Part shown: positions 7,133 through 37,647 of the stretch, one piece after another
Numbering within the stretch: the stretch's first letter is position 1
Layout: the number at the start of each line of letters is the position of its first letter
Assembly (NCBI GenBank): GCA_965203865.1
Contig: OZ241916.1
Coordinates: 861,548-925,547 of the forward strand
Length of the DNA: 64,000 bases
From: Arenicellales bacterium
GTDB taxonomy: Bacteria > Pseudomonadota > Gammaproteobacteria > Arenicellales > JAJDZL01
Reading direction: 5' to 3'
The notes under the pieces: generated by a model
The model's database searches: none
The model's input: the letters and a program-made list of their open reading frames with translations, nothing else
What the model was told of the DNA's origin: nothing
Program-made: the position numbers and the translations under genes

Positions 7133-7144
7133 TTGTATAAAGGC

Positions 7145-7477
7145 ATGAAAAAAAAATTAATCTCTCTTTGCTTTCTTTGGGTATTCGCCATGCCCGTGAT
7201 GCTGCTTGATTCAGGTACGGATGCTTTCGCACAAAGCGAAATGGAAAATTTTGTAGCCGCTTTTAACGAAGCGAATTTGAAGCGGAAAGAGGCCTCACGC
7301 TTGGGCCATGAGTGGCGGGATACCGCAAAACTTCTCAGAAAGGCCAAAAAAACGGCCGAAGCAGGCAAGCTGGCTGAAGCAATGGAATACGTTGAACAAG
7401 CCCGGTTTCAGAGCGAAATGGCAATTGTTCAGGCGCAAAGAGAAGAGAAGCTTTGGCGAGGCCGAATTATCCGCTAG
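7145..7477 (+). CDS. soxK: SoxAX-binding protein (SoxK-like)
   Basis: Signal peptide followed by a helical domain with GHEWRDT; sits between soxA and soxB, where SoxK/SAXB genes occur. Confidence 0.7.
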   Translation: MKKKLISLCFLWVFAMPVMLLDSGTDAFAQSEMENFVAAFNEANLKRKEASRLGHEWRDTAKLLRKAKKTAEAGKLAEAMEYVEQARFQSEMAIVQAQREEKLWRGRIIR

Positions 7478-7601
7478 TTGCAGGCTGGTTGTTTATAACA
7501 ATACAGTTCAAAATACAGCAAATCCAAGTTTTCCTGGATTACTGCCCAAGTTAAAAATCGCGGTGAATTTGATGCGCTTCAAGTAGAACTGGAGTTCTTG
7601 A

Positions 7602-9332
7602 GTGCATATCGACCGTCGGAATTTTATTCAAATCCTTGCGGCGGCATCCGCTGCCGGTATTCTGCCCAAGAGTTCTGTTCAATCAGCAGGTACAGGGCTG
7701 TACGATATTGAAAATTTCGGCGATGTACGTCTTCTTCACATAACCGATTGCCATGCTCAGCTTCATCCTGTTTACTATCGCGAGCCACATACGCATATAG
7801 GCGCGGGAAAGCTGTTTGGTTCATCGAATAATTTGGCAGGGCAAGCACTGCTTGATTTCTACGGCTTTCAGACTAGCAGTATGGAGGCGTATGCCTTTAC
7901 ACACCTGAATTTTGTTGAACTGGCAGAGAAGTACGGAAAAGTTGGAGGTTATGCGCAATTAAAGACACTGATTGACCAGTTGCGGGGAACATTTGGCAAC
8001 GAACGCTGCCTGTTGCTGGACGGCGGAGACAGTTGGCAAGGTTCGGGAACTGCCCTTTGGACCCGCGGAAAGGAAATGGTGGCAGCGAACAACCTGCTCG
8101 GGGTCGACATAGCCACTGGTCATTGGGAGTTTACCTACTCGCCTGAAGAGGTGCAAGAGAATCTTGAAGCGTCTGAAAGCGAATTCGTTGCGCAGAACAT
8201 ATTCTTGACTGAAGAAGCACAGTTCGAAAACAAGCCTGCCTACGATAGTTTCTCAGGAAGGGTATTTCCGCCCTACACTATTCGTAGACTGGGCAATTTT
8301 GAAATTGCAATCATCGGTCAAGCGTTTCCGTATACACCAATAGCCAATCCAAGTCGCCTTGTTCCTGACTGGACCTTTGGTATTCGCGTCGAGGAGCTTC
8401 AAAAGCTTGTGACGAAAGTTCGAAATACGAACAAACCGGATGCCGTGATTCTCCTGTCCCATAACGGGATGGCAATTGATTTAAAACTTGCAAGCATGGT
8501 TACTGGGATTGATGCGATTCTTGGTGGGCATACGCATGATGCTGTTCCCAAACCCATACCCGTATCCAATTCAAAGGGTACTACGCTGGTGACAAACGCC
8601 GGTTCCAATGGAAAGTTTCTGGGTGTATTGGACATTGCTTTCGGCAAGCGAGGAGTACGAGAGATGAATTATCGGTTGCTACCGGTTTTTAGCAATTACT
8701 TGAAGCCGGATACTGAAATGCAGTCGTTCATAAATGCATCTCGGCGGAAATATTCAAAAATACTTGAAGAGCCGCTCGCTGAAACCGAGTCTTTGTTATT
8801 CAGGAGAGGGAATTTCAATGGAACCTTCGATGAGATTATTTGCGGTGCGTTGCAAACAGTCGGCGATACGCAAATTGCCTGGTCGCCCGGATTCAGATGG
8901 GGGACAGCAGTAATGCCTAGACAACAAATTTTCATGGAAGATCTACTTTCAATGACCGCGATAACCTACCCGGAAATCTACATTCGGGAAATGTCGGGAG
9001 AGGCTTTGAAGCAAGGTCTGGAGGATTTGGCGAGCAGCGTATTCAATCCAGACTATTTTCATCATACAGGCGGGGACATGGTTCGGCTGTCTGGTCTTGC
9101 CTATACAATTGAGCCGTTCGCTGCAACCGGGAGCAGAATCTCGGAGATGCGCCTTGATAACGGGGAATTGATTGAAGCGAGGAAAAGGTATACTGTTACA
9201 GGCTGGGCGTCGGTAGGCGAAGTTTCAGATCTTCCGCCGGTGTGGGATATAGTGGCAGAGTATTTGCGTAACGAAGGAACGGTAAAAGTTGCAACCACAA
9301 ATAAGCCCAGATTGTTACTTGAAAAGAGATAA
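7602..9332 (+). CDS. soxB: Thiosulfohydrolase SoxB
   Basis: Tat signal DRRNFIQ; metallophosphoesterase motifs HITDCHAQL, GGDSWQGS, GHWEFT, LSHNG, GGHTHD. Confidence 0.93.
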   Translation: MHIDRRNFIQILAAASAAGILPKSSVQSAGTGLYDIENFGDVRLLHITDCHAQLHPVYYREPHTHIGAGKLFGSSNNLAGQALLDFYGFQTSSMEAYAFTHLNFVELAEKYGKVGGYAQLKTLIDQLRGTFGNERCLLLDGGDSWQGSGTALWTRGKEMVAANNLLGVDIATGHWEFTYSPEEVQENLEASESEFVAQNIFLTEEAQFENKPAYDSFSGRVFPPYTIRRLGNFEIAIIGQAFPYTPIANPSRLVPDWTFGIRVEELQKLVTKVRNTNKPDAVILLSHNGMAIDLKLASMVTGIDAILGGHTHDAVPKPIPVSNSKGTTLVTNAGSNGKFLGVLDIAFGKRGVREMNYRLLPVFSNYLKPDTEMQSFINASRRKYSKILEEPLAETESLLFRRGNFNGTFDEIICGALQTVGDTQIAWSPGFRWGTAVMPRQQIFMEDLLSMTAITYPEIYIREMSGEALKQGLEDLASSVFNPDYFHHTGGDMVRLSGLAYTIEPFAATGSRISEMRLDNGELIEARKRYTVTGWASVGEVSDLPPVWDIVAEYLRNEGTVKVATTNKPRLLLEKR

Positions 9333-18186: not shown

Positions 18187-18501
18187 ATGCTCAACAAGTC
18201 AGTAGAATTCAAGTTTAACGCCAATGCTGGAATTCGGGACGTAGATAGCCAGGTGCCCGCTGTAATGCGCTTGGCGAGTTGGTTTCACAAATGGAGAATC
18301 CGCAGGAACACTATTCGTCAACTTTCTGCTTTAACCAATCACCAGCTTGAAGACATAGGTATACAGCGGAGCGAAATTGCTCGGGTAGTTGATGGCATGA
18401 TAGAAATAAATCATCAGGATACCTTTCACAATGATGTTGACAGAGTCAACAGATGCAAGCAGTATATTGAAGCTGGACTCAGTTCCAAGGCACTGGCATA
18501 A
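18187..18501 (+). CDS. DUF1127 (YjiS-like) small protein
   Basis: WRIRRNTIRQLSALTNHQLEDIGIQRSEI matches the DUF1127 consensus; GGAG RBS upstream. Confidence 0.8.
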   Translation: MLNKSVEFKFNANAGIRDVDSQVPAVMRLASWFHKWRIRRNTIRQLSALTNHQLEDIGIQRSEIARVVDGMIEINHQDTFHNDVDRVNRCKQYIEAGLSSKALA

Positions 18502-18532: not shown

Positions 18533-18561
18533 AAAGACCACCCATCAGGGTGGTCTTTTTT
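18533..18561 (+). terminator. Rho-independent terminator
   Basis: AAAGACCACCC-ATCA-GGGTGGTCTTT followed by a T run, just after the DUF1127 stop. Confidence 0.8.
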
Positions 18562-18750
18562 ATTGGTTTGGATCTGTTGTGTCAAGTGCTGCCAGAATTC
18601 CAGTAAATTATTCAGCGACAAATCAATCGTTATGATACCATTTGAGAAATTGAAGTGAATTCTCAGATTTTTCATAATTAAATGAATAAACTTCCAATAA
18701 AATCAGTAAACTAAATCAATATTAATCTTAGGTATCAAGGAGTGTAAAAG

Positions 18751-20202
18751 TTGCTTCGAACTAGTCAGAATTATCGCGAATCACTGCAGGACGGTCGAGT
18801 TGTTTGGATGGACGGCGAACGAGTTGACGATGTGGCTACACACCCAGCATTTAAACCGCTGGTTGACGTAAGGGCGCATATTTACGATATGGCACAAAAT
18901 GCTGAGCACAAGAAATTGCTCACCTATAAAGACGATAGCGGGGAGCAGCATGCAGTACTTCAGAAATTGCCCTACAAGAAAAAGGATTGGTGGCACAGGG
19001 GAAAGGCGGTTGATATTATATTGAACGATATAGGAGGGGTCGTTACGCGTGTCGGCGATGAAACAGTAGGGGAGATGTGGTCGTTGTATGACGGGAGCGA
19101 CGTATTAGCCGAAATTGACCCGCGATTTGCAGATAATATCAAGAACCACATCGACAATGTCTTGCACAACGATGTATTCCATGTATCTGCAAACACTGAC
19201 CCCAAAGGCGACCGGTCAAAGCCGCCCCAAGAGCAGGACCCCGACATGCTGCTCCACGTGGTAAAGGAAACCGATGCAGGAATCGTAATTCGCGGAGCGA
19301 AATATGAAACTGCATCAGCATACGCAGACCAGGCATTTTTAAAACCCACAATCGCCAATTGGGGCGACCAAAAACTATCCGACTATGCAGTTGGCGTGAT
19401 TGTCAAGATGAATGCAAAGGGTTTGACCCATATTTGCCGCACTGGATTTGCAAAACGCGCACCAAAAGAAGACTACCCGCTAGCGAACAGGTTTGACGAA
19501 GTGGACACCCTCATGATATTCGACGACGTACTGATTCCGTGGGAGGATGTTCTTTTCTATCAGCATACCAGAGCTGCGGCGTTCATTCGGGCTACCTTGC
19601 ATCGCTACAGCGCCCATGCCTTTGTTCATAGAATTCAGAAGACCGCAGACATGATGATTGGAGCAGCAGTTTTCAATGTTCGGCAAACTGGTTTGGATAA
19701 GCAGCAAGCAGTTCGGGAGAAACTGGCGCAGCTTGTTTGCTATCGGGAAGGAATCAATGCCCACTTGACTGCATCAATCTCTTCCGCACAAAGAAGCCCG
19801 AAAGGCTTGCTTATGCCAAACCCGTCCCTGCTTTATACAGGTCGTGTTCTGGCATGCACACAGTTGCCGCACATGATGCACATTGCAAGAGAATTATGCG
19901 GTGGACAAATCTGTATCACACCTGACCACTCAAGTTTCGAGGCCGAAGAAATCAAGCCTTGGCTGGAAAAATACTATTCAATCAATGAAGAGTGGCATTA
20001 CGATGACCGGCGCAAGCTGTTAGCATTGGCGCGGGATCTGTTGAATTCCGACTATGCTGGACACAAGCTTACATTTCAGTTGTTCGCTCAATCACCGCCG
20101 TTTGCCCATTTGAATGCGGTCTACATGAACTTTGACTTTACTGACCCGATGCGATTTGTCAAGCGCGCAGCTGGATTGTCGGATCGAATCTCAATAGACT
20201 AG
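18751..20202 (+). CDS. 4-hydroxyphenylacetate 3-hydroxylase (HpaB/PvcC) family flavin monooxygenase, oxygenase component
   Basis: YRESLQDGRVVWMDGERV..HPAF; DPKGDRS; GAKYETAS; RFDEVD..IFDDVLIPWE. Confidence 0.8.
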   Translation: MLRTSQNYRESLQDGRVVWMDGERVDDVATHPAFKPLVDVRAHIYDMAQNAEHKKLLTYKDDSGEQHAVLQKLPYKKKDWWHRGKAVDIILNDIGGVVTRVGDETVGEMWSLYDGSDVLAEIDPRFADNIKNHIDNVLHNDVFHVSANTDPKGDRSKPPQEQDPDMLLHVVKETDAGIVIRGAKYETASAYADQAFLKPTIANWGDQKLSDYAVGVIVKMNAKGLTHICRTGFAKRAPKEDYPLANRFDEVDTLMIFDDVLIPWEDVLFYQHTRAAAFIRATLHRYSAHAFVHRIQKTADMMIGAAVFNVRQTGLDKQQAVREKLAQLVCYREGINAHLTASISSAQRSPKGLLMPNPSLLYTGRVLACTQLPHMMHIARELCGGQICITPDHSSFEAEEIKPWLEKYYSINEEWHYDDRRKLLALARDLLNSDYAGHKLTFQLFAQSPPFAHLNAVYMNFDFTDPMRFVKRAAGLSDRISID

Positions 20203-20220
20203 ATCTGGAGTGGGAAAACG

Positions 20221-20637
20221 ATGGACAAACACATTCGATTAAGAAAATTCAACACTAAAGACACATATCCGGAACAGGAACTGGACAATGATCTATGCCA
20301 GGTTGTAAAGGCGGGCAATTTGGTATTTCTCAGGGGTCAGGTTGGGAGTGATTTTGAAGGCAATGTAGTGGGTGTAGGCGACCCTGCCGCTCAGGCAGAC
20401 CAGGCTATGCGTAATGTAAAGCAACTACTTGAAGAAGCCGGAGCATCGCTTGAAGATATTTGCAGGATTACCGTCTACATTACAGACCGCGGTTATCGCG
20501 AACCCGTATATCGTACTATAGGTAAATGGTTGAAAGGGGTTTTTCCAGTGTCGACCGGATTAATTGTCCAAGGACTTGCAAAACCGGAGTGGGTCATGGA
20601 AATAGAGGTGACTGCTGTCATCTCTGATAACAATTAG
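20221..20637 (+). CDS. RidA/YjgF family enamine/imine deaminase
   Basis: GNLVFLRGQVG; AQADQAMRNVKQLLEEAG; C-terminal MEIEVTA. Confidence 0.85.
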   Translation: MDKHIRLRKFNTKDTYPEQELDNDLCQVVKAGNLVFLRGQVGSDFEGNVVGVGDPAAQADQAMRNVKQLLEEAGASLEDICRITVYITDRGYREPVYRTIGKWLKGVFPVSTGLIVQGLAKPEWVMEIEVTAVISDNN

Positions 20638-20670
20638 CAAAAATTTTATATTTTTCTTTGAGGAGGAAAA

Positions 20671-22071
20671 ATGGCATTAAGAAAAAACTACGATACTCAT
20701 TATCTTTGGGAAAAGGATCGGGACCATACGATTCATCCATGGACTGATTTTTCGGTTTTTCATGAAAAAGGGTCATTGGTTGTCGCCGAAGGACAAGGAG
20801 TTCACGTTTTTGACAGCGATGGCAACAAGTATATAGATGGCATCGGCGGCCTGTGGTGCGTGAATATTGGCTACGGGTCGGACGAGATGGCAGATGCAAT
20901 TGCCGAGCAGGTTCGCGCCATACCCTACTATTCCGTGTTTAACCACATTACGACACCACCGGCAGCGGAGCTCGCTTCCAAACTTGCCAGCATTGCTCCC
21001 GGGTCAATCAATCGGGTTTTCTATGGCACTGGCGGGTCTATGGCAAATGATACTGCGGTTCGCATTATTCACCACTATTTCAATATGCTAGGCCAGCAGT
21101 CCAAGAAGAAGATCATTTCGCGCTTCGATGCATATCACGGAAGTACCTACTTGGCAATGGCACTTACAGGCGTGGAGTTCGACCATACAAACTTCGACCA
21201 TGCACAAGGACTTGTAGAATATGTATCCTCGCCGAATCCCTACCGGAAACCTGACGGGATGACCGATGAGCAGTTCTGCGACTTTCTGGTCCAGGAACTT
21301 GATGAGAGAATTGAAGAATTGGGTGCTGAGAACGTGGCAGCATTTATTGCTGAGCCTGTCATGGGGGCAGGGGGTGTGATTGTTCCGCCGAGTGGCTACC
21401 ACAAGAGAACCCGGGAAGTCTGTACAAAGCACGATGTTATATATATATCCGACGAGGTTGTTACAGGTTTCGGCAGGCTGGGCCACATGCTCGCTTCAAA
21501 AGACGTGTTTGACCTGGAGCCGGACATAATTACTTGCGCCAAAGGAATCACCTCGGGTTATCTTCCACTCTCAGCGACATTAATCTCTGATGAAATTTAC
21601 GATGTTATCAGCAGGCCAAGAGATGATGGCACGCTGTTTACTCACGGATTTACTTATTCAGGACATCCGGTGTGCTGTGCGGCGGCGCTAAAGAACATTG
21701 AAATCATTGAAAGAAACGGGATTTGCGAGCATGTTCAGGAAGTCGGCCCCTACTTCGAGGAACGCTTGGCCACACTGAGCGATCTTCCAATTGTAGGGGA
21801 GGTGCGTGGCAAGTGTTTTATGATGTGCATTGAAAATGTGGCGAATACAGAAACAAAAGAACTGTTTGACCAATCCGTTCAAATTGGATATCGAATTGCC
21901 GAAAATTGCCAGAAATTCGGACTGATTGTTCGACCTGTTGGACATTTGAACGTACTGTCGCCCCCGTTGACACTGACGCGTAGCCAAATTGACGAAGTCG
22001 TTGAGATTCTGCGCAAAGGCATTGAAGCCACTATGGACGATTTGGTTCGGGAAGGTATTTGGAATTCATAG
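20671..22071 (+). CDS. Class III PLP-dependent aminotransferase (amine:pyruvate type)
   Basis: YIDGIGGLWCVNIGYG; AYHG; AFIAEPVMGAGG; ISDEVVTGFGR; CAKGITSG. Confidence 0.88.
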   Translation: MALRKNYDTHYLWEKDRDHTIHPWTDFSVFHEKGSLVVAEGQGVHVFDSDGNKYIDGIGGLWCVNIGYGSDEMADAIAEQVRAIPYYSVFNHITTPPAAELASKLASIAPGSINRVFYGTGGSMANDTAVRIIHHYFNMLGQQSKKKIISRFDAYHGSTYLAMALTGVEFDHTNFDHAQGLVEYVSSPNPYRKPDGMTDEQFCDFLVQELDERIEELGAENVAAFIAEPVMGAGGVIVPPSGYHKRTREVCTKHDVIYISDEVVTGFGRLGHMLASKDVFDLEPDIITCAKGITSGYLPLSATLISDEIYDVISRPRDDGTLFTHGFTYSGHPVCCAAALKNIEIIERNGICEHVQEVGPYFEERLATLSDLPIVGEVRGKCFMMCIENVANTETKELFDQSVQIGYRIAENCQKFGLIVRPVGHLNVLSPPLTLTRSQIDEVVEILRKGIEATMDDLVREGIWNS

Positions 22072-22115
22072 AATTTGGCATTTTCCAGATTGGTTGAAAT
22101 CCGATTTTTCATGGC

Positions 22116-24197
22116 ATGGCCCGAGACTCGCGCTACGATGTCCTGTTTGAACCCGTTCAAATAGGACCTGTTACAGCGCCAAATCGTTTCTATCAGGTTC
22201 CACACTGTAGCGGAATGGGGCATGCGCGTCCGAATTCCGCAGCAACCATGCGAGCTGTCAAGGCGGAAGGTGGCTGGGGCGTTGTTTCAACCGAACAATG
22301 CGATATTCACCATACCTCGGACATAACCCCTTATGTAGAGCAAAGACTTTGGGACGATTCCGACGTGCCGATGCATGCGAAGATGGTAGATGCGGTGCAT
22401 AAGCATGGTGCACTGGCAGCAGTTGAACTGTCCTATGGTGGCATAGAATCTCCTAATCTCTTGACCCGGGCGGTGACGGTGGCTCCGTCTGCCGGCCCCT
22501 ACCCCGGCTACTACCCGATTTATGCTCGAGAAATAACGAAAGAAGACATTCGGGATATTCTCGCTATATACAGAAAAGGCGCAGCAAGGGCTATGCAGGC
22601 AGGTTTCGACATCATTTATGTTTATTCCGCGCATGCGTTATCTCTCCCCACCCAGTTTTTGTCAAAAAAATTCAACCGGCGTACGGATGAATACGGGGGT
22701 TCTCTGGAGAATCGTACCCGGTTTCTGAAAGAAATTCTTGAAGTGACGAAAGATGAAGTTGGAAATCGCTGTGCAGTTGCTTTGAGATTTTCAATTGACG
22801 AGCTGTGCGGGCAGGATGGAATGGAGCACGACAAGGAGGGAATCGAAGTGGTCAAGTTGCTTGCAGAGTTGCCAGACCTGTGGGATGTGAACATAAGTGA
22901 CTGGGACAACGATTCTGCAACATCCCGGTTTCAATCTGAGGGTTTTCAGGAGAAATATATCAGTCAAGTAAAGAACGCAACTTCCAAGCCTGTCGTTGGT
23001 GTCGGGCGATTTACGTCGCCGGATACCATGGTATCGCAGATCAATAGAGGGGTCCTGGATTTTATCGGTGCTGCGCGTCCGTCAATTGCCGACCCTTTTC
23101 TACCCAAAAAAATAGAAGAAGGAAGAATTGATGATATTCGAGAGTGTATTGGTTGCAATATTTGCGTCACCGGCGACTACACTGTTTCTTCGTCTCGGTG
23201 CACCCAGAATCCGACCTTCGGTGAGGAGTGGCGCAGAGGGTGGCATCCAGAGTATATTGAATCTGCCACAAGCAAGGATAATGTGCTCATAGTCGGTGCC
23301 GGGCCGGCTGGCTTGGAATGCGCCGCCTGGCTTGGAAAAAGAGGTTTTCAGGTAACACTTGTTGATGCCGAAAAGACACTTGGTGGGCGAGTCAACCACG
23401 AGAGTGTCCTGCCTGGCTTGTCATCATGGATTCGCGTTCGAGATCATCGAATGCAGCAAATTTCCAACTTGACCAATGTTGAAGTTTTTCCAGCGAGCAA
23501 AATGAGTGTTCAGGACATATACGATTTTGGAGCGAAGCGTGTAGTGGTCGCAACGGGTGCCAGATGGCGAAAAGACGGATTGGGGAGAAACCACTACTCT
23601 ACAGTTGAAATTCCAGATTCGTTGAAAGTATGGACACCAGATGATTTTTGGGGGCAATCCGACCTGAAGGGCAGAGTTTTGATTTACGACGACGACCACT
23701 TTTACATGGGCGGGTTGATTGCAGAGTTGATTTGCGCCGGTGGTGCTGAAACTGCTCTTGTAACTCCCGCACCAGACGTGTCCCACTGGACGCACTATAC
23801 TCTGGAGCAACATCAAATTCAATCGAAGCTTCTGGAAATGGGAGTTTCCATTTATCCCCATTTGCATTTTCATTCAGTTGCTGATGGCCTGGCGGAATTC
23901 CAAGATGAATATACAAGCGGGGTTACTGAAATTCCGTTTGATCATATTGTTCTGGTAACTTCAAAGATTTCGGAAGACAAGTTGTACAGGCAAATAGTCT
24001 CGGACTCCGAAAAGTTGCTTGATTCAGACTTGAAAGCAGTTGATAAAATTGGGGATTGCCTGGTTCCGGGTACAATTGCAGCAGCAGTATACTCCGGGCA
24101 TAAATGGGCGAGAAATCTAGGCGAATCCGAACTTGCCGACGGTACACCTTTTTTACGGGAACTTGTTGCGGTTTCTAGTCCGGAATTTCCTGCTTGA
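22116..24197 (+). CDS. Histamine/trimethylamine dehydrogenase family flavoprotein (FMN, 4Fe-4S)
   Basis: NRFYQVPHC with the 6-S-cysteinyl-FMN Cys; cluster motif RECIGCNIC...RCTQNP; GAGPAGLE dinucleotide fold. Confidence 0.85.
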   Translation: MARDSRYDVLFEPVQIGPVTAPNRFYQVPHCSGMGHARPNSAATMRAVKAEGGWGVVSTEQCDIHHTSDITPYVEQRLWDDSDVPMHAKMVDAVHKHGALAAVELSYGGIESPNLLTRAVTVAPSAGPYPGYYPIYAREITKEDIRDILAIYRKGAARAMQAGFDIIYVYSAHALSLPTQFLSKKFNRRTDEYGGSLENRTRFLKEILEVTKDEVGNRCAVALRFSIDELCGQDGMEHDKEGIEVVKLLAELPDLWDVNISDWDNDSATSRFQSEGFQEKYISQVKNATSKPVVGVGRFTSPDTMVSQINRGVLDFIGAARPSIADPFLPKKIEEGRIDDIRECIGCNICVTGDYTVSSSRCTQNPTFGEEWRRGWHPEYIESATSKDNVLIVGAGPAGLECAAWLGKRGFQVTLVDAEKTLGGRVNHESVLPGLSSWIRVRDHRMQQISNLTNVEVFPASKMSVQDIYDFGAKRVVVATGARWRKDGLGRNHYSTVEIPDSLKVWTPDDFWGQSDLKGRVLIYDDDHFYMGGLIAELICAGGAETALVTPAPDVSHWTHYTLEQHQIQSKLLEMGVSIYPHLHFHSVADGLAEFQDEYTSGVTEIPFDHIVLVTSKISEDKLYRQIVSDSEKLLDSDLKAVDKIGDCLVPGTIAAAVYSGHKWARNLGESELADGTPFLRELVAVSSPEFPA

Positions 24198-24894
24198 CCG
24201 CTTCTGCCATTTCTGCCATTGATTCAAAACGGAATTGATAGGTAATTTTTTCTGCAACTTCAGGCGTAGCGCCTGAACCAGACTGCTTTCCACGCCTGTC
24301 TATCCAGCATCTTGCAAGACCTGCCTTAGTGGCAGGAACCATATCATGATGAAGACTTTGGGCGGTATGCAGAATTTCGCTGTTGGCAATTCCTTCATGT
24401 TCAAGCTGCTTCAACATGTAGTGGAAATTTTTCAACGAGGGTTTATATGACCCAATATCTTCGGCGGTGTATACAGCATCAAATTCTACTTTCAATTTTT
24501 CATTGCTCTTCGCAAACGAGCGGTTGTCAACATTGGAAAGAATGACAAGTTTGAAGTGATTCTTCAGAAATTCAAGTGCCGTTGCCGAGTCAAGGAACGC
24601 CGGCCAGCTGCCGACTGCATTCAAACTGAGTTCACGGGCATTGTCCGGAAGAGACTCTTCGAACTGTTTTGCGATTTCAAGAAGGGCATCTGCCACAAGT
24701 TCCGAATACTTCATATTTGGATTTGCTGTTTGCAAGCGGGATTCCGTATTTGAATACAACTGCAGCAATTCATTCCTGGGAGGGAGTCGAGATTTTGAAA
24801 TTAGCGAAGAAAGCGAGTTGGCAATGCCGGTTTCCCAATCAATCAGGGTGCCGTAACAGTCGAATGTCAAAGTTGAAAACTGGGTGATTTTCAT
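24175..24894 (-). CDS. Second HAD-superfamily hydrolase, haloacid dehalogenase type II-like
   Basis: TFDCYGTLIDWE; ILSNVD; GSYKP; HTAQSLHHD. Confidence 0.82.
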   Translation of the reverse strand: MKITQFSTLTFDCYGTLIDWETGIANSLSSLISKSRLPPRNELLQLYSNTESRLQTANPNMKYSELVADALLEIAKQFEESLPDNARELSLNAVGSWPAFLDSATALEFLKNHFKLVILSNVDNRSFAKSNEKLKVEFDAVYTAEDIGSYKPSLKNFHYMLKQLEHEGIANSEILHTAQSLHHDMVPATKAGLARCWIDRRGKQSGSGATPEVAEKITYQFRFESMAEMAEAVKQEIPD

Positions 24895-26016: not shown

Positions 26017-27003
26017 TCAAGATGTCGCTAATAGTACGACTGTGGTTTGAACGATGTCTTGAACTGTCGCCCCTCTGGACAAGTCTGCGATTGGATGGGC
26101 AAATCCTTGCAACACGGGACCGATAGCATGTGCCCCTGCCAAGTATTGGGTAATCTTGTAGGCAATGTTGCCTGAATTCAAGTCTGGAAATATCAAAACA
26201 TTTGCCTGGCCTGCAACAGGTCCGGTTTCCCCCAACTTCAATGCCGCGCTTCTTGGGTCCAGCGCAGCATCCAATTGAAGCTCACCGTCAATTAAAATTT
26301 TCGAATCCTTCTCTCGGACATGAACGAGTGCCTGATTGATTCGTTCAATGAGACCATGCCTGGCACTTCCCTTGGTAGAAAACGAAAGCAAGGCAACTTT
26401 GGGTTCTTCTGGCAGAAGCCCCTTGGCATTATTTGCCGCACTGATTGCAATGTCTGCCAACTGCTCGGGTGTCGGGTCGACATTAACAGCGCAATCGGCA
26501 AATATTAGCTGTCTTGCGGGTCGATTATTGTGTGCAGGTACAACCATAAGGAAGTAGCTTGACGGTGTTTTGATGCCGCGCTCCGGGCCAATCATCATCA
26601 AGCCGGCTTCAATGACTTTGGCAGTGGGAACCGAGGCACCCGCAATCATCGCGTGAGCCTCTCCGAGCCGCACCATCAAGGCCCCGATCATCAGTGGCTT
26701 GCGTAGCAAGCGGCTAGCGATTCCGGGTTTGAGCGGGCGCGGACCGGATGCACAGGCTTGTACATACCGGTCCGGTTCAATTTCTGACGCGGGGTCAACA
26801 ATTTGAATGCCATCCAATGACAAGTCATTTTCTGCTGCAATCAAGGATATTGCAGATCGGTCGCCGGTTAAAATCGGCAGTGCGACCTGATCATCAGCCA
26901 ATATCCGTGCAGCGCGTATAACTCGCTCGTCCGCAGCATCGGCAAGGACGACTTTTCGAGGCTTGGACCTCGCAGTATCTGTCAACCTGTTCAGAAATTC
27001 CAA
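26017..27003 (-). CDS. pta: Phosphate acetyltransferase
   Basis: FADCAVNVDP; LLSFSTKGS; DGELQLDAAL; FPDLNSGNIAYK; DLSRG; directly downstream of xsc. Confidence 0.88.
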   Translation of the reverse strand: MEFLNRLTDTARSKPRKVVLADAADERVIRAARILADDQVALPILTGDRSAISLIAAENDLSLDGIQIVDPASEIEPDRYVQACASGPRPLKPGIASRLLRKPLMIGALMVRLGEAHAMIAGASVPTAKVIEAGLMMIGPERGIKTPSSYFLMVVPAHNNRPARQLIFADCAVNVDPTPEQLADIAISAANNAKGLLPEEPKVALLSFSTKGSARHGLIERINQALVHVREKDSKILIDGELQLDAALDPRSAALKLGETGPVAGQANVLIFPDLNSGNIAYKITQYLAGAHAIGPVLQGFAHPIADLSRGATVQDIVQTTVVLLATS

Positions 27004-27006
27004 ACG

Positions 27007-28758
27007 CTATACGTACTGCTTGTATTTCTCAAGATGTCGTACGGGTGCACTCAAAGCGTCTCGCCGAAACGGGTCGCCAAGCTCTCTTGTGCACATAATT
27101 TCAACAACGGTGGTTTTACCGTCGTTCTGGGCTGCACACGCCTGATGCAACGCATCGCCAACCATGTCAAGCTTGTCTACCACAATACCTTCGGCACCCA
27201 TGGATTTTGCAATGTTCGCCCAGCTTGGATTTTCCAGGTTGACTCCCTCGAAACGGCGGCCATAGAAGTCCACCTGATTCTTCTTTTCCGCGCCCCATTG
27301 ACGATTGTTGAATACAACCGGCGTAACCGGAATGTTTTCTCTTACACAGGTAAGCAACTCACCCATGCTCATTGCCCATGCACCGTCGCCAACGTATGCA
27401 ATGGCAGTCCTGTCGGGTCGGGCAACTTTCACTCCCATAATCGTCGGAAATGCGTATCCGCAATTGCCAAAACTCATTGCGGCGAAAAAACTGCGGGATT
27501 TCTCAAATCGCAAGTAACTATTGGATACCGAGCAAATATTGCCAATATCGGTTGAAATTGCAGCGTTTGCTGGTGTTGCTTTCTCCAGCTCGCGCAAGAC
27601 TTGGCGAGGATGAAGCAAATCTTTATCCTCTTCAACAACGGATTGGCTCCATTCATCGGACTCTTGTGTCCAGCTATTAAGTTCCGACTCCCAATTCTGC
27701 TTTTCTACTGCAATTTCCTTGACACGCGAGTCCTTGTTTTGAAGACATGCAATTTTTTCGCGATTTTTTAGCCGTTCAAGTATGGCATTTGCTGCCTCGC
27801 CGGAGTCTCCGCAAATGCCTACAGAAATTGGTTTGACAAGTCCCAGCATTCGATGGTCGATATCCACCTGAATAATTTTTGCATCCACGGGCCAGTAGTC
27901 AATTCCGTGCTGAGGCAGAGTCCCGAACGGGCCCAGTCGCGTTCCCAAGGCAAGAACCACATCCGCCTTGGACATCAATCGCATTCCTGCCTTGGAACCC
28001 TGATATCCCAGAGGGCCCGCCCACAGTGGGTGACTGGCAGGAAACGAATCGTTATGCAGATAGCTATTCACCACCGGGGCAGAAAGATACTCTGCAAGCT
28101 CAATACAGTTGTCGACTGCATTTGCCATTATTACACCGCCTCCTGAAACAATCACCGGAAATTCGGCTTCCGCCAAGATTCTGGCTGCATCATCAAGAGC
28201 ATTGCCACCGCCCGGACCTCTTTCAATCGGTTGGGGCTTCGGTATGTTTATGTTAATATCGCCGTAGAAATAATCTCTCGGGATGTTCAATTGCGTGGGT
28301 CCGTTTTCCGCCATAGCCATGTCAAAACAGCGACCTGTGATTTCGGCCATTCTGCCAGGTCCGTTAACATGCCCCTGAAATTTTGTAATCTTTGAAAAAA
28401 TTGGCAATTGCTCGGTTTCCTGAAAGCCGCCAAGACCGATTGTGCCGCTGCCTGTTTCCGGGGTAATCGCCACCACTGGTGAGTGCGCCCAGTATGCCGC
28501 TGCAACAGCAGTTACAAAATTTGTTATTCCTGGCCCGTTCTGGCCAATGCAGACTCCGTGTTTTCCGCTAACTCTTGCGTAACCGTCTGCCATATGGGCA
28601 GAGCCCTGTTCATGTACTGTGGGTATAAAGCGAATGCCGGCTGCCGGAAATATGTCCAGTGCGTCCATATAGGCGGAGCCGACAATTCCAAAAACGTCGG
28701 TTACACCGAAAGAAACCAGTGTTTCAACAAACGCTTCGCTTGGTGTCATGCGTGGCAT
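27007..28758 (-). CDS. xsc: Sulfoacetaldehyde acetyltransferase
   Basis: MTPSEAFVETL; GSAYMDALD; HEQGSAHMADGYARVSG; QNGPGITN; ThDP motif GDGAWAMS..NRQWGAEKKNQ; ELGDPFRRDAL. Confidence 0.92.
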   Translation of the reverse strand: MPRMTPSEAFVETLVSFGVTDVFGIVGSAYMDALDIFPAAGIRFIPTVHEQGSAHMADGYARVSGKHGVCIGQNGPGITNFVTAVAAAYWAHSPVVAITPETGSGTIGLGGFQETEQLPIFSKITKFQGHVNGPGRMAEITGRCFDMAMAENGPTQLNIPRDYFYGDININIPKPQPIERGPGGGNALDDAARILAEAEFPVIVSGGGVIMANAVDNCIELAEYLSAPVVNSYLHNDSFPASHPLWAGPLGYQGSKAGMRLMSKADVVLALGTRLGPFGTLPQHGIDYWPVDAKIIQVDIDHRMLGLVKPISVGICGDSGEAANAILERLKNREKIACLQNKDSRVKEIAVEKQNWESELNSWTQESDEWSQSVVEEDKDLLHPRQVLRELEKATPANAAISTDIGNICSVSNSYLRFEKSRSFFAAMSFGNCGYAFPTIMGVKVARPDRTAIAYVGDGAWAMSMGELLTCVRENIPVTPVVFNNRQWGAEKKNQVDFYGRRFEGVNLENPSWANIAKSMGAEGIVVDKLDMVGDALHQACAAQNDGKTTVVEIMCTRELGDPFRRDALSAPVRHLEKYKQYV

Positions 28759-28810
28759 TAGTAGTAATCTCCTAAGTAAACTGTGGATTTAAGTATGTCA
28801 AATTTGCTCG

Positions 28811-29932
28811 CTATACAGATTGTAGTGCATCCATCGGCGGGTAGTAATCGTAGTTCAAATTGTTGGCAACTTCTTCGTAGGTAATACGCCCTTTGCATAC
28901 ATTCAGTCCGTTCAGCAAGTGAATGTTCTGTTCAAGTGCGTCTTTGTAGCCTTTGTTTGCCAGTTCAACCGCAAATGGCAGCACAACATTGTTCAGTGCA
29001 TAGGTTGAAGTACGCGGCACGGCGCCAGGCATATTGGTAACACAATAGTGAACGACTCCGTTTACGGTATAGGTAGGTTCGGAGTGAGTAGTTGGTTTGG
29101 ATGTTTCGAAGCACCCGCCTTGGTCAATGGCCACATCAACGATAGCTGACCCGGGACGCATCCCTTCAATCATGCTCTTGGTAACCAGCTTTGGTGCTTG
29201 CGCACCCGGGATCAGGACTGAGCCAACCACCAGATCTGCGTCCAAAACATGGTTCTCCAAAGAAGAGCGGGTAGAAAATACCGTGTTGGTTGTACGTCCG
29301 AATTGCGTCCAGTGGTACTCCAGAACATTCACGTTGTTGTCGACAACCCAAACGTCTGCTCCCATTCCGACCGCAATATGAGTTGCATGGGTTCCAACAA
29401 CCCCTCCGCCGAGGATTACAACTTTCGCCGGGTCCACGCCTGGAACGCCTCCGAGAAGTATGCCTTTGCCGCCGTGCGTACGCTCCAGGCACCAGGCACC
29501 GACCTGAATTGCCATTCTTCCGGCCACTTTGGACATGGGAGCAAGCAAAGGCAACCCGCCCTTGCCATCGTCAACAGTTTCATATGCAATGCAAATTGCT
29601 CCGCTGTCAACCAGATCTTTGGTCTGGTCCGGGTCCGGCGCAAGATGCAAAAAAGTAAACAGTATCTGGTTTTCCCGCAGCAACTTTCGTTCCGATGCCA
29701 GAGGTTCTTTTACCTTTACGACCATATCGGCAAATTCAAATATGTCTTCCGGTGTGTCAAGAACTTTGGCTCCAGAATTTCTATAGTCATCGTCCGAAGC
29801 TTGAATTCCGATTCCGGCATTTGTTTCAACAGCCACTTCGTGGCCGTAATGAACGAGCTCCCGTACGCTACCGGGAATCAGCCCAACTCTGAACTCGTCC
29901 TGTTTCGTCTCTTTTGGAACACCAATTCGCAT
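28811..29932 (-). CDS. ald: Alanine dehydrogenase
   Basis: MRIGVPKE; VKVKEP; FLHLA; APMSKVAGRM; DVAIDQGGC; HYCVTNMPG. Confidence 0.93.
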   Translation of the reverse strand: MRIGVPKETKQDEFRVGLIPGSVRELVHYGHEVAVETNAGIGIQASDDDYRNSGAKVLDTPEDIFEFADMVVKVKEPLASERKLLRENQILFTFLHLAPDPDQTKDLVDSGAICIAYETVDDGKGGLPLLAPMSKVAGRMAIQVGAWCLERTHGGKGILLGGVPGVDPAKVVILGGGVVGTHATHIAVGMGADVWVVDNNVNVLEYHWTQFGRTTNTVFSTRSSLENHVLDADLVVGSVLIPGAQAPKLVTKSMIEGMRPGSAIVDVAIDQGGCFETSKPTTHSEPTYTVNGVVHYCVTNMPGAVPRTSTYALNNVVLPFAVELANKGYKDALEQNIHLLNGLNVCKGRITYEEVANNLNYDYYPPMDALQSV

Positions 29933-30222
29933 AATTTTCTCGTGATTGATTGAATAAAAATGCAGTGCTTGTATTTGCCATGTATGATAACGAAATAATG
30001 TTAAAAATAAAGCAGATTTTCATAGTGAATACAAAAAATTCACTCAAAAACATGTAGATCGTATTGAAAGAAGCGATGTTGATTGAATAAAGAGGCTTGC
30101 AGCGGTAGTTTGACTCGTACAATTCTCTATAGAAGAAGCAAAATATTTTTTATAAAAAACAAAATTTTTCTTGCTACTCGGTCGTCAAGCAAACATAATA
30201 GGGACTTAATGAGAGGACAATT

Positions 30223-30248
30223 TTTTACTCAGTGAATACTCAGTAAAA
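30223..30248. promoter_or_regulatory. Near-perfect inverted repeat upstream of the omega-aminotransferase gene, possible operator
   Basis: TTTTACTCAGT-GAAT-ACTCAGTAAAA (1 mismatch), about 40 bp before the ATG at 30288. Confidence 0.45.
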
Positions 30249-30287
30249 ACAAGTTGTTATTTTGTTGTTATTGGAGGAAGAAATTTA

Positions 30288-31598
30288 ATGCGGCACAATG
30301 CTGAATTATTGAAGAATCACTGGATGCCGTTCACGAGCAATCGGGACTTCAAATCCAGTCCTCGGCTCATTATGCGCGGTGAGGGTGTTTATTTATATAC
30401 TCCGGACGGTGACAAGATTATCGATGCCTCGTCGGGACTGTTTTGTTGTTCCGCCGGCCATAGTCGCAAAGAGATCGCCGATGCGGTGCATCAGCAACTT
30501 CGCGAGTTGGCCTACACCGCACCTTTTCAAATGGGACACTTGCACTCCTTCAGATTTGCACAAAAACTCTCGAAGATCACTCCTGCAGGACTTGACAAGA
30601 TATTTTTTGTCAACTCGGGGTCGGAATCGATTGACACTGCGATCAAGATAGCAGTGGCTTACCACTATGCACGAGGAGAAGGCCAGCGGCAAAGGCTAGT
30701 TTCGCGAGAACGCGCCTATCACGGTGTAAACATAGGTGGCACTTCCCTTAGCGGAATGATCAAGAATCGGCAGGCGTTCGGGGTTGGCATGCCGGCAGTT
30801 TCCCACATGCGTCACACATGGTTGCCAGAGAACCGGTTTGCACGCGGCCAACCCGAAAAAGGTGCAGAACTGGCAAACGACCTTGAGCGAATTGTACAGA
30901 ACTTCGGTGCAGATACGATTGCAGCCTGCTTTGTTGAGCCGATAGCAGGGTCAACTGGTTGCCTTGTCCCGCCTGTTGGATATCTGGAACGATTACGGGA
31001 AATTTGCGACGAGTACAACATACTTCTGGTGTTTGATGAAGTTATTTGCGGTTTTGGGCGAACCGGCAAGCCTTTTGCGTCCCAGAGCTTTGGCGTAACG
31101 CCAGATATGATGACGATGGCGAAGGCTTTGACCAATGCGGCGCAGCCCATGGGTGCCGTTGCGGTAAATCAGGATGTTCATGACACGATCGTGGAAGCAG
31201 CTCCTGAAAAATCAGTTGAACTGTTTCATGGCTATACTTATTCAGGTCATCCGGGTGCCTGCGCCGCGGGTTTATCGACGCTGGATATCTATGAGAAAGA
31301 AAACTTGTTCGACCGCGGTGCAAAATTGTCCGACTATTTCCTGGATAGAGTATTTGAGTTGCGAGCCTACGATAAAGTCACCGATATACGCGGCTATGGC
31401 ATGATTGCCGGACTGGATATTGTCCCGGATGGCTCCCCCGGCAAGGCCGGCCTGGAATTTCAGAAAAGACTTTTTGCCGCAGGGTTGCACGCCAAGGCAA
31501 CAGGAGATGCAATCATCCTTGCGCCGCCGTTGATTTCCGAACAGTCCCACATTGACGAAATCTGCGGAATTTTGGGGAAAGTCCTTGGTCAAATGTAG
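30288..31598 (+). CDS. Omega-amino acid:pyruvate aminotransferase (beta-alanine/taurine type, BauA/AptA-like)
   Basis: HWMPFTSNRDFK; DASSGLFC; SGSESIDTAIK; YHGVNIGG; EPIAGSTG; FDEVICGFGR; AKALTN; HGYTYSGHP. Confidence 0.88.
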   Translation: MRHNAELLKNHWMPFTSNRDFKSSPRLIMRGEGVYLYTPDGDKIIDASSGLFCCSAGHSRKEIADAVHQQLRELAYTAPFQMGHLHSFRFAQKLSKITPAGLDKIFFVNSGSESIDTAIKIAVAYHYARGEGQRQRLVSRERAYHGVNIGGTSLSGMIKNRQAFGVGMPAVSHMRHTWLPENRFARGQPEKGAELANDLERIVQNFGADTIAACFVEPIAGSTGCLVPPVGYLERLREICDEYNILLVFDEVICGFGRTGKPFASQSFGVTPDMMTMAKALTNAAQPMGAVAVNQDVHDTIVEAAPEKSVELFHGYTYSGHPGACAAGLSTLDIYEKENLFDRGAKLSDYFLDRVFELRAYDKVTDIRGYGMIAGLDIVPDGSPGKAGLEFQKRLFAAGLHAKATGDAIILAPPLISEQSHIDEICGILGKVLGQM

Positions 31599-31854: not shown

Positions 31855-33003
31855 ATGAAACGAGATTGCGCTGGCGGCGTGAGTCGCCGGAAATTTCTGA
31901 AGACCAGTGGTGCAGCAGGAGCGACTGCTGCAATAGGCCCGTGGATTGTTAGTTCCAAAGTGTTGGCGCAATCATCGGGCGAAGTCAATGTCTTGATGTG
32001 GTCTGACTATCTACCGCCAGGCTACCTGGATTCTTTCACAGCTGAAACCGGTATTGCTGTGAACTACACGGGAATCGGTTCCAACGAGGAAATTATCAAC
32101 AAGATGAAGGCAACAAAAGGAAAGGGCGTCGATATTTGCTCCCCGACCAATGTTCGTTCTGGACAGTGGGTCGATCTGGAATTGCTGCAGCCTTGGGATT
32201 ACAGCAAAATTCCAAATCTCGCCAATGTCAATCCGGCGATGCTTAAAGTCGGTGACAACGAGTGGAATTTTGGTGGCAAGGGCTCACACTGGCTTCCCCA
32301 TATTTGGGGAACCGAAGGAATGGGTTGGCGTACAGACCTTTATTCGCCTCCCGGTGGGCAGCCAAGCTACGGCAATGTCTGGGACGGTTCCGGCAATGGC
32401 AACACCATGATACGGCCGCATTCGGGAATGCTGGGTGCAGGTCTTTATATGGAAACCATTGGCGAGCTGGAGCCAGGCGATGTATGGCGCGCTTATGACA
32501 ATGAGGAAACCATGCGTCCAATCTGGCAAAAGATTACTGACTATTGCATCAAGAACAAGAAGGAAGTCAAGTTGTTCTGGAACGATGCGGATAGTCAGAA
32601 GAACGGTTTCCTGAACGACGGTGTTCTTGTTGGGCAAACTTGGGACGGTCCGCCTTTGGCAATGAAGAACAGTGGCGAACCGGTTCACTATCAGGCTCCC
32701 AAAGAAGGTTCAATGGCGTGGGTGGACGGCATGTCGCTTTCTGTTAGTGCTGACAACATGGACCAGGCGTATGCCTTCGTCGAGTATGCTTTCAGGAAGG
32801 AACCCGGCGGCAAGGCAATTGATACGCACGGCTATAATTCTGCTGTTATTGGTGCTGATGCCTTTGCTGGTGCTCAATACAAAAAGAACTTTTCAGAAGC
32901 TTATCCGGATGACTCTTTGGCCAATCTGAATCCATGGCCTGCTGAGCCGGCATGGTATGCTGATGTCCGAACCGAGTATCGGAACAAGTTCGTAAACGCT
33001 TAA
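31855..33003 (+). CDS. Polyamine-type (PotD/PotF-like) ABC transporter substrate-binding protein, Tat-exported
   Basis: SRRKFLK Tat signal; WSDYLP; SNEEIINK; PKEGSMAWVDG. Confidence 0.85.
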   Translation: MKRDCAGGVSRRKFLKTSGAAGATAAIGPWIVSSKVLAQSSGEVNVLMWSDYLPPGYLDSFTAETGIAVNYTGIGSNEEIINKMKATKGKGVDICSPTNVRSGQWVDLELLQPWDYSKIPNLANVNPAMLKVGDNEWNFGGKGSHWLPHIWGTEGMGWRTDLYSPPGGQPSYGNVWDGSGNGNTMIRPHSGMLGAGLYMETIGELEPGDVWRAYDNEETMRPIWQKITDYCIKNKKEVKLFWNDADSQKNGFLNDGVLVGQTWDGPPLAMKNSGEPVHYQAPKEGSMAWVDGMSLSVSADNMDQAYAFVEYAFRKEPGGKAIDTHGYNSAVIGADAFAGAQYKKNFSEAYPDDSLANLNPWPAEPAWYADVRTEYRNKFVNA

Positions 33004-33026
33004 ATTGACAGTTTTGTCAATTGCAT

Positions 33027-33068
33027 GAAGGGTGCGCACATTGAATTTAATTTGATGTGCGCATCTTC
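33027..33068 (+). terminator. Stem-loop after the binding-protein gene (terminator or mRNA-stabilising hairpin)
   Basis: TGCGCACAT (33033-33041) pairs with ATGTGCGCA (33055-33063), extended by GAAG/CTTC. Confidence 0.45.
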
Positions 33069-33129
33069 TTTGAGTTACAATAAATTTTTCTTGTAGAAAA
33101 CTTTCAATAAATCAGAAAGGTGAGGTTTT

Positions 33130-34230
33130 ATGAGTGCAGATGTCCGACTGGAGAATGTTTGGATTAGATTTGGAGATTTTATCGCAGCAAAAGAGGTAAA
33201 TCTGCATATTCAGGAAGGGGAGTTTTTTACTATTTTAGGGCCTTCCGGCTGCGGCAAAACAACTTTGCTTCGAGCGGTTTCAGGATTTTTGGAGCCGTCC
33301 GAAGGAGATGTTTTGATCGGCGGCAACAATGTCGCCGGAATTGGGCCGAATCGCCGTCCTACGGCCCTGATATTTCAAAACCTCGCTTTGTTTCCATTGA
33401 TGACCATCTGGGAGAACATTACATTTTCTCTGGAGGTTAAGGGAGCTGGCAAATCAGAACGAAGGAAAAAAGCAGAAGAGCTCCTTGAATTAATTGCTCT
33501 GCCCGGACAAGGGGACAAAATGGTGAACGAATTGTCGGGCGGGCAAAAGCAGCGTGTTGCGATTGCCCGGGCCTTGTGTGCACAACCGGATGTATTGCTG
33601 CTTGATGAACCACTAAGTGCACTCGACCTGAAGTTGCGACAACATATGCGCACCGAACTGCGGTCAATTCAGCAGCAGGTAGGAATTACATTTATCTATA
33701 TTACTCACGACCAGGGTGAAGCGCTAACGATGTCTGACAACGTCGCTGTCATGCGCGAGGGGATTATTGAGCAAGTTTGCGACGGAACGACGTTGTACGA
33801 TCATCCGGACACGGCGTTTGTTGCTTCGTTTGTCGGAGAAAACAACCTGTTTCGAGGGAAGGTGACCGATGTAAGCAATGGTGTCGCGGCAGTTGAAACA
33901 CCGGAAGGCACTTTGACCGGCATGGTTGGTGCCAAAGAAGAATCTGTAGTTAAAAAAGGGGACAATGCGTTCCTGTTTGTGCGTCCTGAATCATTCCGCT
34001 ATGCGAATGGCGGCGATTCCGGCAACACAGTCACTGCAAAAGTCTTTTACCAGGAGTTTGAAGGTCACTTTTGGCAGGTGTTTTTAGATACTCTGTCTCA
34101 AAAACGGGTGAAAATGTCCTTTGTCAATGACGGCGAAGAGCCGGAGCATAAAAAGGGAGACGAGGTGACCATCTCGTTTAATGAAAAGGTAGCAACCGTA
34201 CTTCCGGAAGGACCACTAGCAGCAGAGTAA
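33130..34230 (+). CDS. ABC transporter ATP-binding protein, PotA-like
   Basis: Walker A GPSGCGKT; signature LSGGQ; Walker B LLLDEP; C-terminal TOBE-like region. Confidence 0.9.
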   Translation: MSADVRLENVWIRFGDFIAAKEVNLHIQEGEFFTILGPSGCGKTTLLRAVSGFLEPSEGDVLIGGNNVAGIGPNRRPTALIFQNLALFPLMTIWENITFSLEVKGAGKSERRKKAEELLELIALPGQGDKMVNELSGGQKQRVAIARALCAQPDVLLLDEPLSALDLKLRQHMRTELRSIQQQVGITFIYITHDQGEALTMSDNVAVMREGIIEQVCDGTTLYDHPDTAFVASFVGENNLFRGKVTDVSNGVAAVETPEGTLTGMVGAKEESVVKKGDNAFLFVRPESFRYANGGDSGNTVTAKVFYQEFEGHFWQVFLDTLSQKRVKMSFVNDGEEPEHKKGDEVTISFNEKVATVLPEGPLAAE

Positions 34231-34256
34231 TCTTCTATTATTCGGATTCCAGTGAA

Positions 34257-36526: not shown

Positions 36527-36541
36527 CGCGTTCCCTTTGTA

Positions 36542-37612: not shown

Positions 37613-37647
37613 AACATTTATTAGACAAATTAATCAGTTGAGTATGA

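Follow-up and report, generated by a model that had tools for sequence, protein, structure and literature searches.

A four-gene operon in an Arenicellales chromosome

We analyzed a 64,000-nucleotide stretch of the genome of an Arenicellales bacterium (GenBank assembly GCA_965203865.1, contig OZ241916.1, positions 861,548 to 925,547 of the forward strand; hereafter the window), in which four co-oriented genes encode, in order, an HpaB-family flavin-dependent oxygenase component, a RidA-family protein, a class III aminotransferase and a dehydrogenase of the trimethylamine dehydrogenase (TMADH) family (Table 1). The sequence is part of a complete chromosome of 3.15 Mb (98% complete), the nearest public relatives of which are metagenome-assembled genomes of Arenicellales (Gammaproteobacteria). 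The gaps between the genes are 18, 33 and 44 bp, in order. An earlier sequence-only reading had described four tightly packed, co-oriented genes putatively for the catabolism of histamine or imidazole acetate; the open reading frames are packed as described, and their families, which are observed directly, are those reported by the Pfam and NCBIfam models. The functions and substrates that we propose below are assigned from sequence and gene context.

Table 1. Positions of the operon genes and of flanking features in the window
Feature	Position	Strand	Remarks
DUF1127-domain open reading frame, 104 amino acids (aa)	18187-18501	+	within the long AT-rich intergenic stretch from leuC to the operon
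Terminator-like hairpin 3' of the DUF1127 gene	18534-18561	+	10-bp G+C-rich stem, 4-nt loop, T run; read from the sequence
Sigma-70-like promoter candidate, TTGAAG-17-CATAAT	18650-18678	+	9/12 consensus matches; 72 bp 5' of the oxygenase gene; weak
HpaB-family flavin-dependent oxygenase component, 483 aa	18751-20202	+	TTG start, AGGAG ribosome-binding site; Pfam HpaB_N and HpaB, 279.7 and 189.7 bits
RidA-family protein, HinL orthologue	20221-20637	+	Pfam PF01042 Ribonuc_L-PSP, 74.3 bits
Class III omega-amine:pyruvate-type aminotransferase, PRK07036 subfamily	20671-22071	+	Pfam Aminotran_3, 300.9; NF005447, 747.6
Histamine-dehydrogenase-type TMADH-family enzyme, 693 aa	22116-24197	+	Pfam Oxidored_FMN, 254.5; Pyr_redox_2/OYE-like second domain
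Type II haloacid-dehalogenase-family (HAD-type) hydrolase	24175-24894	-	TIGR01428, 131.3 versus cut-off 125.4
Phosphate acetyltransferase	26017-27003	-	taurine-type cluster
Sulfoacetaldehyde acetyltransferase Xsc	27007-28758	-	TIGR03457, 935 bits versus cut-off 676
Alanine dehydrogenase	28811-29932	-	taurine-type cluster
AptA-type omega-aminotransferase, divergent	30288-31598	+	NF052567, 595 versus 500

The RidA protein links the operon to the Hin pathway. In Pseudomonas putida U and P. aeruginosa PAO1, this pathway is encoded by hinFLHG (PA5393-PA5390), hinDAC and hinK. The products of hinFLHG are two amidases, a monooxygenase and an enamine deaminase, HinD is an aldehyde dehydrogenase, HinC is an aminotransferase and HinK is a regulator of the LysR type (PMC8231116, PMC6467879); the enamine deaminase is the protein named HinL (PMC6467879). 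We find that the RidA protein of the window is 66-67% identical to HinL of Pseudomonas hin loci that have an FMO-type oxygenase, and 69% identical to the copy in another Pseudomonas locus (L064). The likeness of its N-terminus to a Pseudomonas hin protein, pointed out from the sequence alone, lies in FNTKDTYPEQELDNDLCQ at residues 10-27 and extends, at the identity just given, to HinL itself. The HinL orthologue, whose orthology is directly observed, is encoded immediately 3' of the proposed ring oxygenase gene, across the 18 bp gap.

The association of this type of oxygenase with HinL is widespread. When one genome per species was scanned, at least 591 stretches were found to encode relatives of the oxygenase, and we surveyed the loci of the best 80 of these at least 591 stretches, in which identity to the window oxygenase is 69-87%. 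The 80 loci come from Gammaproteobacteria, Alphaproteobacteria (including a Pelagibacteraceae genome), Acidobacteriota, Actinomycetota and Chloroflexota. A RidA protein like that of the window (HinL) is a neighbor in 79 of them and a DUF1028 protein (HinH) in 59; other neighbors are a PF01613 flavin reductase (31 loci), an M20 hydrolase (HinG; 26), a LysR regulator (22), a PhyH-family dioxygenase (8) and a copper amine oxidase (7).

The four-gene order, with its tight spacing, is present in all 14 surveyed loci from the Arenicellales family to which the window belongs (L011-L023 and L028). Conservation of the gene neighborhood had been suggested as a check on the sequence-only reading; the order is found in 14 related Arenicellales loci and is therefore not a chance juxtaposition. 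Across these loci, identities are 79-87% for the oxygenase, 74-82% for the aminotransferase and 61-70% for the dehydrogenase, which is the least conserved. Among the 80 loci, an aminotransferase and a dehydrogenase following the oxygenase and HinL genes were not seen outside this family, except that the module has a dehydrogenase homologue (52-53% identity) as its neighbor in loci L043 and L081, both of them alphaproteobacterial. In other Arenicellales families, the oxygenase/HinL module is instead accompanied by PhyH, HinH and an ABC transporter.

The HpaB-type oxygenase in the HinF position

The gene order in Pseudomonas sp. UMAB-08 (L064) is reductase, HpaB-type oxygenase, RidA, DUF1028, M20, LysR, aldehyde dehydrogenase and aminotransferase. 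Judged by its sequences, this is the hinFLHG-hinK-hinD-hinC layout in which the oxygenase alone has been exchanged. The layout suggested that the HpaB-type protein might be HinF itself, a reading that we rejected on the evidence of 20 further Pseudomonas hin loci, located via HinH, none of which contains an HpaB-like gene. In the two of these that were annotated (L102 and L108), the gene directly upstream of hinL encodes a flavoprotein of ∼540 aa of the Pyr_redox_3/FMO type. Enzymes of this type belong to the single-component class and use NAD(P)H directly.

The two oxygenase types also exclude one another in the Pseudomonas genomes sampled. Among 101 of these, including one flagged as unpublished (G140), DUF1028 proteins were matched in 74 at E ≤ 1e-30, comprising 72 close HinH homologues (≥64% identity) and 2 distant ones (37%). 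The FMO-type gene is present in 71 genomes, usually 1-2 kb from HinH, and the HpaB type in a single genome, which lacks the FMO type; the two were never found together, and one of them is present wherever there is a close HinH. The sequence-only reading held that an HpaB-type enzyme replaces the single-component monooxygenase, and the three comparisons agree with it (no HpaB-like gene in the 20 loci, the FMO type in the slot of both annotated loci, and 71 genomes versus 1). The HpaB-type gene is a non-homologous substitute in the HinF position, mutually exclusive with the FMO type. In the window's genome, no FMO-type HinF homologue was found at E ≤ 0.001. A description of an HpaB-type enzyme for the imidazole-acetate step was not found in the searchable literature, and the Brevibacterium supplement does not give the family of HinF.

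The window oxygenase differs from the HpaB enzymes for which the family is named. It scores far below the curated HpaB models (TIGR02309, 228.6 versus a cut-off of 480.2; TIGR02310, 158.1 versus 885.2) and, by sequence, is not a true HpaB. It matches Thermus thermophilus HpaB with 181 bits (483 versus 481 aa), and in this alignment R100, E104, S146 and T200 correspond to R100, Y104, H142 and T198 of the T. thermophilus protein; all four are invariant in 55 of 55 aligned oxygenase orthologues. In T. thermophilus HpaB, we take Arg100, Tyr104 and His142 to be phenol-binding, with Tyr104 and His142 holding the phenol hydroxyl. A pocket that retains part of the carboxylate site and has a changed phenol site would suit a non-phenol aryl-acetate, an observation that is supportive, not decisive. 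The clade is large, with 5364 protein matches at E ≤ 1e-50. Public records give its members the name '4-hydroxyphenylacetate 3-hydroxylase family' or sometimes 'anthranilate 3-monooxygenase', yet the gene context points to imidazole acetate.

The genome also encodes a second, distant HpaB-family paralogue (251064-252473, minus strand; 24% identity), which is present in most genomes of the family. One of the two FMN_red-family reductase genes of the genome (259127-259543, plus strand) lies ∼7 kb from this paralogue.

Putative amine-oxidizing enzymes and unlinked candidate pathway genes

The dehydrogenase is expected from its family to contain 6-S-cysteinyl-FMN, a 4Fe-4S cluster and an ADP-binding fold. 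Compared with solved structures in the Protein Data Bank (PDB), it aligns over its full length with the histamine dehydrogenases of Rhizobium (6DE6, 763.8 bits) and Nocardioides simplex (3K30, 743.9 bits), and scores 658.2 bits with 6L6J and 557.6 bits with TMADH (1djn). It is thus nearer to the histamine dehydrogenases than to TMADH, as had been suggested from its motifs, all of which (TEQ, PYVEQRLW, ELPDLWD and WDNDSATSRF) are found in the protein. The TEQ motif is specific to this genome, because the 14 related Arenicellales orthologues have Glu, not Gln, at position 61. The cofactor and catalytic residues are kept: C31, which is the flavinylated residue, C344, C347, C350 and C362 for the 4Fe-4S cluster, and the triad Y170, H173 and D266. 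These residues are invariant across 15 sequences (the window dehydrogenase and its relatives). Residue positions were counted along the printed structure alignment and then checked by script.

The residues proposed to form the histamine site of the N. simplex enzyme are Gln65, Ile74, Phe77, Glu79, Asn115, Tyr181, Trp267 and Asp358 (PMC10180351). Five of these eight are identical in the window enzyme, where Q61, I70, E75, W263 and D354 correspond to Gln65, Ile74, Glu79, Trp267 and Asp358. The dehydrogenase is of the histamine-dehydrogenase type by sequence, and its predicted substrate is histamine. Enzymes of this type appear to have been studied mostly as biosensor reagents.

The aminotransferase passes the model for PRK07036 omega-aminotransferases (NF005447, 747.6 versus a cut-off of 618), and its closest solved relatives are 3i5t, 5ti8 and 6gwi, the last a putrescine aminotransferase. 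Identity to the products of the Pseudomonas genes in the HinC position, which fall in NF009068 (PRK12403; 991.7 versus a cut-off of 817), is 35-37%. We propose that it is a histamine aminotransferase, and as such it would be an analogue of HinC, not an orthologue. The nearest HinC homologue in the genome (50% identity) was considered as a pathway member and set aside; it adjoins the phosphonate gene PbfA and is probably unrelated.

Three unrelated kinds of amine-oxidizing enzyme have joined the oxygenase/HinL module in different lineages: the aminotransferase, the FMN/Fe-S dehydrogenase and, in 7 Gaiellales/actinomycete loci, a copper amine oxidase. Their presence beside the module supports an amine-derived substrate. 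In the window, the module is cut to the oxygenase and HinL and is joined to both the aminotransferase and the dehydrogenase.

Candidates for the remaining steps lie elsewhere. A HinH-like DUF1028 gene is found ∼152 kb downstream of the window start (50% identity to the L064 copy, 53-56% to those of FMO-type loci) and a HinG-like M20 gene ∼333 kb upstream of it (48-50% identity), while the best HinD-like aldehyde dehydrogenase (42% identity) is encoded 3.6 kb past the window end. No HinK-like LysR gene is adjacent to the operon; the best match in the genome is 30% identical and far away. The aldehyde dehydrogenase gene within the window (37648-39171) was rejected as HinD, as it encodes a methylmalonate-semialdehyde dehydrogenase. 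The pathway is plausible, though its genes would be scattered over the genome, and the assignment of the unlinked HinH, HinG and aldehyde dehydrogenase candidates is its weakest link.

PhyH-family genes recur around these functions. In the window's genome, genes for PhyH-family (Fe/2-oxoglutarate) dioxygenases stand directly before the HinH-like and HinG-like genes (L091:596-2178 and L092:348-2643); the two PhyH paralogues are 32% identical to each other. A PhyH gene lies between HinL and HinH in one locus each of a Kiloniellaceae (L026), a Pelagibacteraceae (L044), a Kiloniellales (L061) and a MarineAlpha5 alphaproteobacterial (L082) genome; L053, L115 and L120 are further loci of note for PhyH. 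An adjacent flavin reductase is missing from 7 of the 8 surveyed loci with a PhyH neighbor. Some Pseudomonas genomes contain a PhyH gene together with a second HinH/HinG pair, that pair being without HinL.

Proposed route, alternatives and relation to known systems

The operon probably covers the upper and middle steps of a Hin-related route for histamine and imidazole acetate, in which the oxygenase is not homologous to FMO-type HinF and two enzymes serve for entry. Histamine would be converted to imidazole-4-acetaldehyde either by the FMN/4Fe-4S dehydrogenase, with release of ammonium and transfer of electrons to an acceptor, or by the omega-aminotransferase, probably with pyruvate as the amino acceptor; two histamine-deaminating routes side by side are plausible. 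An aldehyde dehydrogenase encoded outside the operon would then yield imidazole-4-acetate. Gene context suggests that the HpaB-type protein hydroxylates the imidazole ring with reduced flavin supplied by a reductase whose gene lies outside the operon, in the reaction of FMO-type HinF (EC 1.14.13.5). By orthology, HinL would take the imidazolone (enamine/imine) intermediate towards formiminoaspartate, and the unlinked HinH-like (DUF1028) and HinG-like (M20) hydrolases would complete the route to aspartate.

Several observations weigh against this reading. The operon lacks genes for an aldehyde dehydrogenase, for HinH and HinG, for a transporter and for a regulator. The HinH-like and HinG-like genes found elsewhere both come after a gene for a PhyH-family dioxygenase, and they may have their role in a different pathway. 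The HinG-like M20 protein passes NCBIfam models for acetylornithine deacetylase; the M20 protein in the HinG position of L064 passes the same models, and the match is therefore non-discriminating. The aminotransferase is outside the HinC subfamily (NF009068, 363.4 versus a cut-off of 817). Three of the eight histamine-site residues of the dehydrogenase are changed (Phe77 to Y73, Asn115 to E111 and Tyr181 to L175), and the related Arenicellales dehydrogenases have Glu at position 61, the equivalent of N. simplex Gln65, where the window enzyme shares Gln with the characterized histamine dehydrogenases; among the 14 orthologues, L175 is invariant and position 111 is variable (E, M, H or Q). Finally, the assignment of HinF to the FMO type in P. 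putida U and PAO1 is deduced from the majority of the genus and from the papers' term 'FAD-monooxygenase'.

The source of reduced flavin is a further point against it. The sequence-only reading saw no flavin reductase partner in the window; this holds, and for the HpaC type (PF01613) it holds for the complete genome, in which none was found by a search that matched 13 of 14 control genomes. Similarly, PF01613 was not found in 8 of 24 other genomes of the family, though all 24 carry the oxygenase. HpaB-family oxygenases accept free reduced flavin from unrelated reductases, and the absence of PF01613 is therefore a gap and not a contradiction. Candidate flavin donors in the genome are two FMN_red and four Fre/FNR-type genes, none of which is linked to the operon; a nitroreductase-family (PF00881) protein was not found in the genome. 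The dehydrogenase was also considered as the supplier of reduced flavin. This idea was dropped because TMADH-family centers have redox potentials much higher than that of free flavin; in addition, both a dehydrogenase and a reductase are encoded at locus L081.

We weighed three other explanations. Two unrelated modules might share one transcript, with the aminotransferase and dehydrogenase acting on some other amine (putrescine, agmatine or a taurine-related compound) and the HpaB-type oxygenase and HinL acting on imported imidazole acetate. The best solved relatives of the aminotransferase, which is not of the HinC subfamily, do include putrescine aminotransferases, the dehydrogenase has the three altered histamine-site residues and the variable position 111 and is the least conserved of the four proteins (61-70%, compared to 79-87% for the oxygenase), and a taurine cluster lies next door. 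However, the gaps of 18-44 bp and the order kept in 14 loci stand against it, as does the recruitment, in other phyla, of amine oxidizers of three unrelated kinds next to this oxygenase/HinL module, and the best PDB matches of the dehydrogenase are two characterized histamine dehydrogenases; we consider this explanation unlikely. Alternatively, the dehydrogenase could be an oxidative N-demethylase that uses TMADH-type chemistry on N-methylated histamines, after which the aminotransferase would deaminate histamine, so that the two would be sequential and not redundant. Such a role would account for the retention of both 'deaminases' side by side in 14 genomes, and it fits both a family that includes tri- and dimethylamine dehydrogenases and pocket changes that are fixed in the clade (L175 invariant, positions 61 and 111 altered). 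Set against it are the conservation of Glu75, Trp263 and Asp354, which distinguish histamine dehydrogenase, the much lower TMADH score, and the operon itself, in which no formaldehyde-handling gene was seen. We regard this as quite improbable, and it is equally improbable that the dehydrogenase, as an N-demethylase or an oxidase of modified histamines, makes the operon a funnel of several histamine derivatives into one ring-opening route.

An ordinary arylethylamine route, in which tyramine or a similar amine would yield 4-hydroxyphenylacetate for hydroxylation by a true HpaB, is suggested by the Pfam HpaB domains and by the public name '4-hydroxyphenylacetate 3-hydroxylase family'. This reading conflicts with the TIGR02309 and TIGR02310 scores far under their cut-offs, with the constant partners HinL, HinH and HinG, and with the Glu and Ser that occupy the HpaB Tyr104 and His142 positions, presumably the phenol contacts, in 55 of 55 orthologues; moreover, the Pfam and NCBIfam annotation around the operon contains no homoprotocatechuate ring-cleavage genes. 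We give it hardly any weight.

The features that flank the operon are included in Table 1. Upstream, the hairpin at 18534-18561 appears from its sequence to be the 5' limit of the operon; it is not among the sites listed by the consensus scan. Promoter-like sites of the kind found 5' of the oxygenase gene number 18 in the region, compared to 12.4 expected from shuffling. Downstream, the HAD-type gene is convergent with the dehydrogenase gene and shares its last 23 bp, a position that is kept in 13 of 14 related loci. The operon is adjoined by a taurine-type dissimilation cluster (26017-31598), and the genes at 31855-39171 encode an ABC transporter (a Tat-signal binding protein, an ATPase and two permeases), then a short MetE-like protein below all cut-offs, and end with a CoA-acylating methylmalonate-semialdehyde dehydrogenase (37648-39171; TIGR01722, 704.8 versus 448.5); these genes are possibly a route for beta-alanine or a related amine. 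Sulfur-oxidation genes (a SoxA-type cytochrome c and a SoxB-like 5'-nucleotidase-family protein) lie upstream at 6299-9332.

If the Hin-related histamine/imidazole-acetate route is correct, many genomes, including those of marine Arenicellales and SAR11-type bacteria, gain a predicted use of histamine or imidazole acetate as a source of carbon and nitrogen. EC 1.14.13.5 would be served by two unrelated enzyme solutions, and histamine-dehydrogenase-type enzymes would acquire a physiological context. The operon is best seen as a lineage-specific assembly that arranges a known pathway in a new way; what it adds is better annotation and knowledge of the pathway, with no new principle.

The operon can be compared with three known systems. 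It resembles the Pseudomonas Hin system in that HinL directly follows the oxygenase gene in both. The two differ in that the single-component FMO/Pyr_redox_3 HinF of Pseudomonas has as its counterpart an HpaB-type protein of a two-component family, the aminotransferase is of PRK07036 whereas HinC is of PRK12403, a histamine-dehydrogenase-type enzyme has been added, and HinH, HinG and the aldehyde dehydrogenase are unlinked to the operon in the window's genome. With T. thermophilus HpaB (PDB 2YYG-2YYM), the window oxygenase shares the same two Pfam domains and the equivalents of Arg100 and Thr198, but it has Glu for Tyr104 and Ser for His142, and its gene context is Hin, not hpa. The histamine dehydrogenases of Rhizobium sp. 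4-9 (6DE6) and N. simplex (3K30) have the same cofactor Cys, triad and five contact residues as the window enzyme, which differs from that of N. simplex in having Glu for Asn115, Leu for Tyr181 and Tyr for Phe77.

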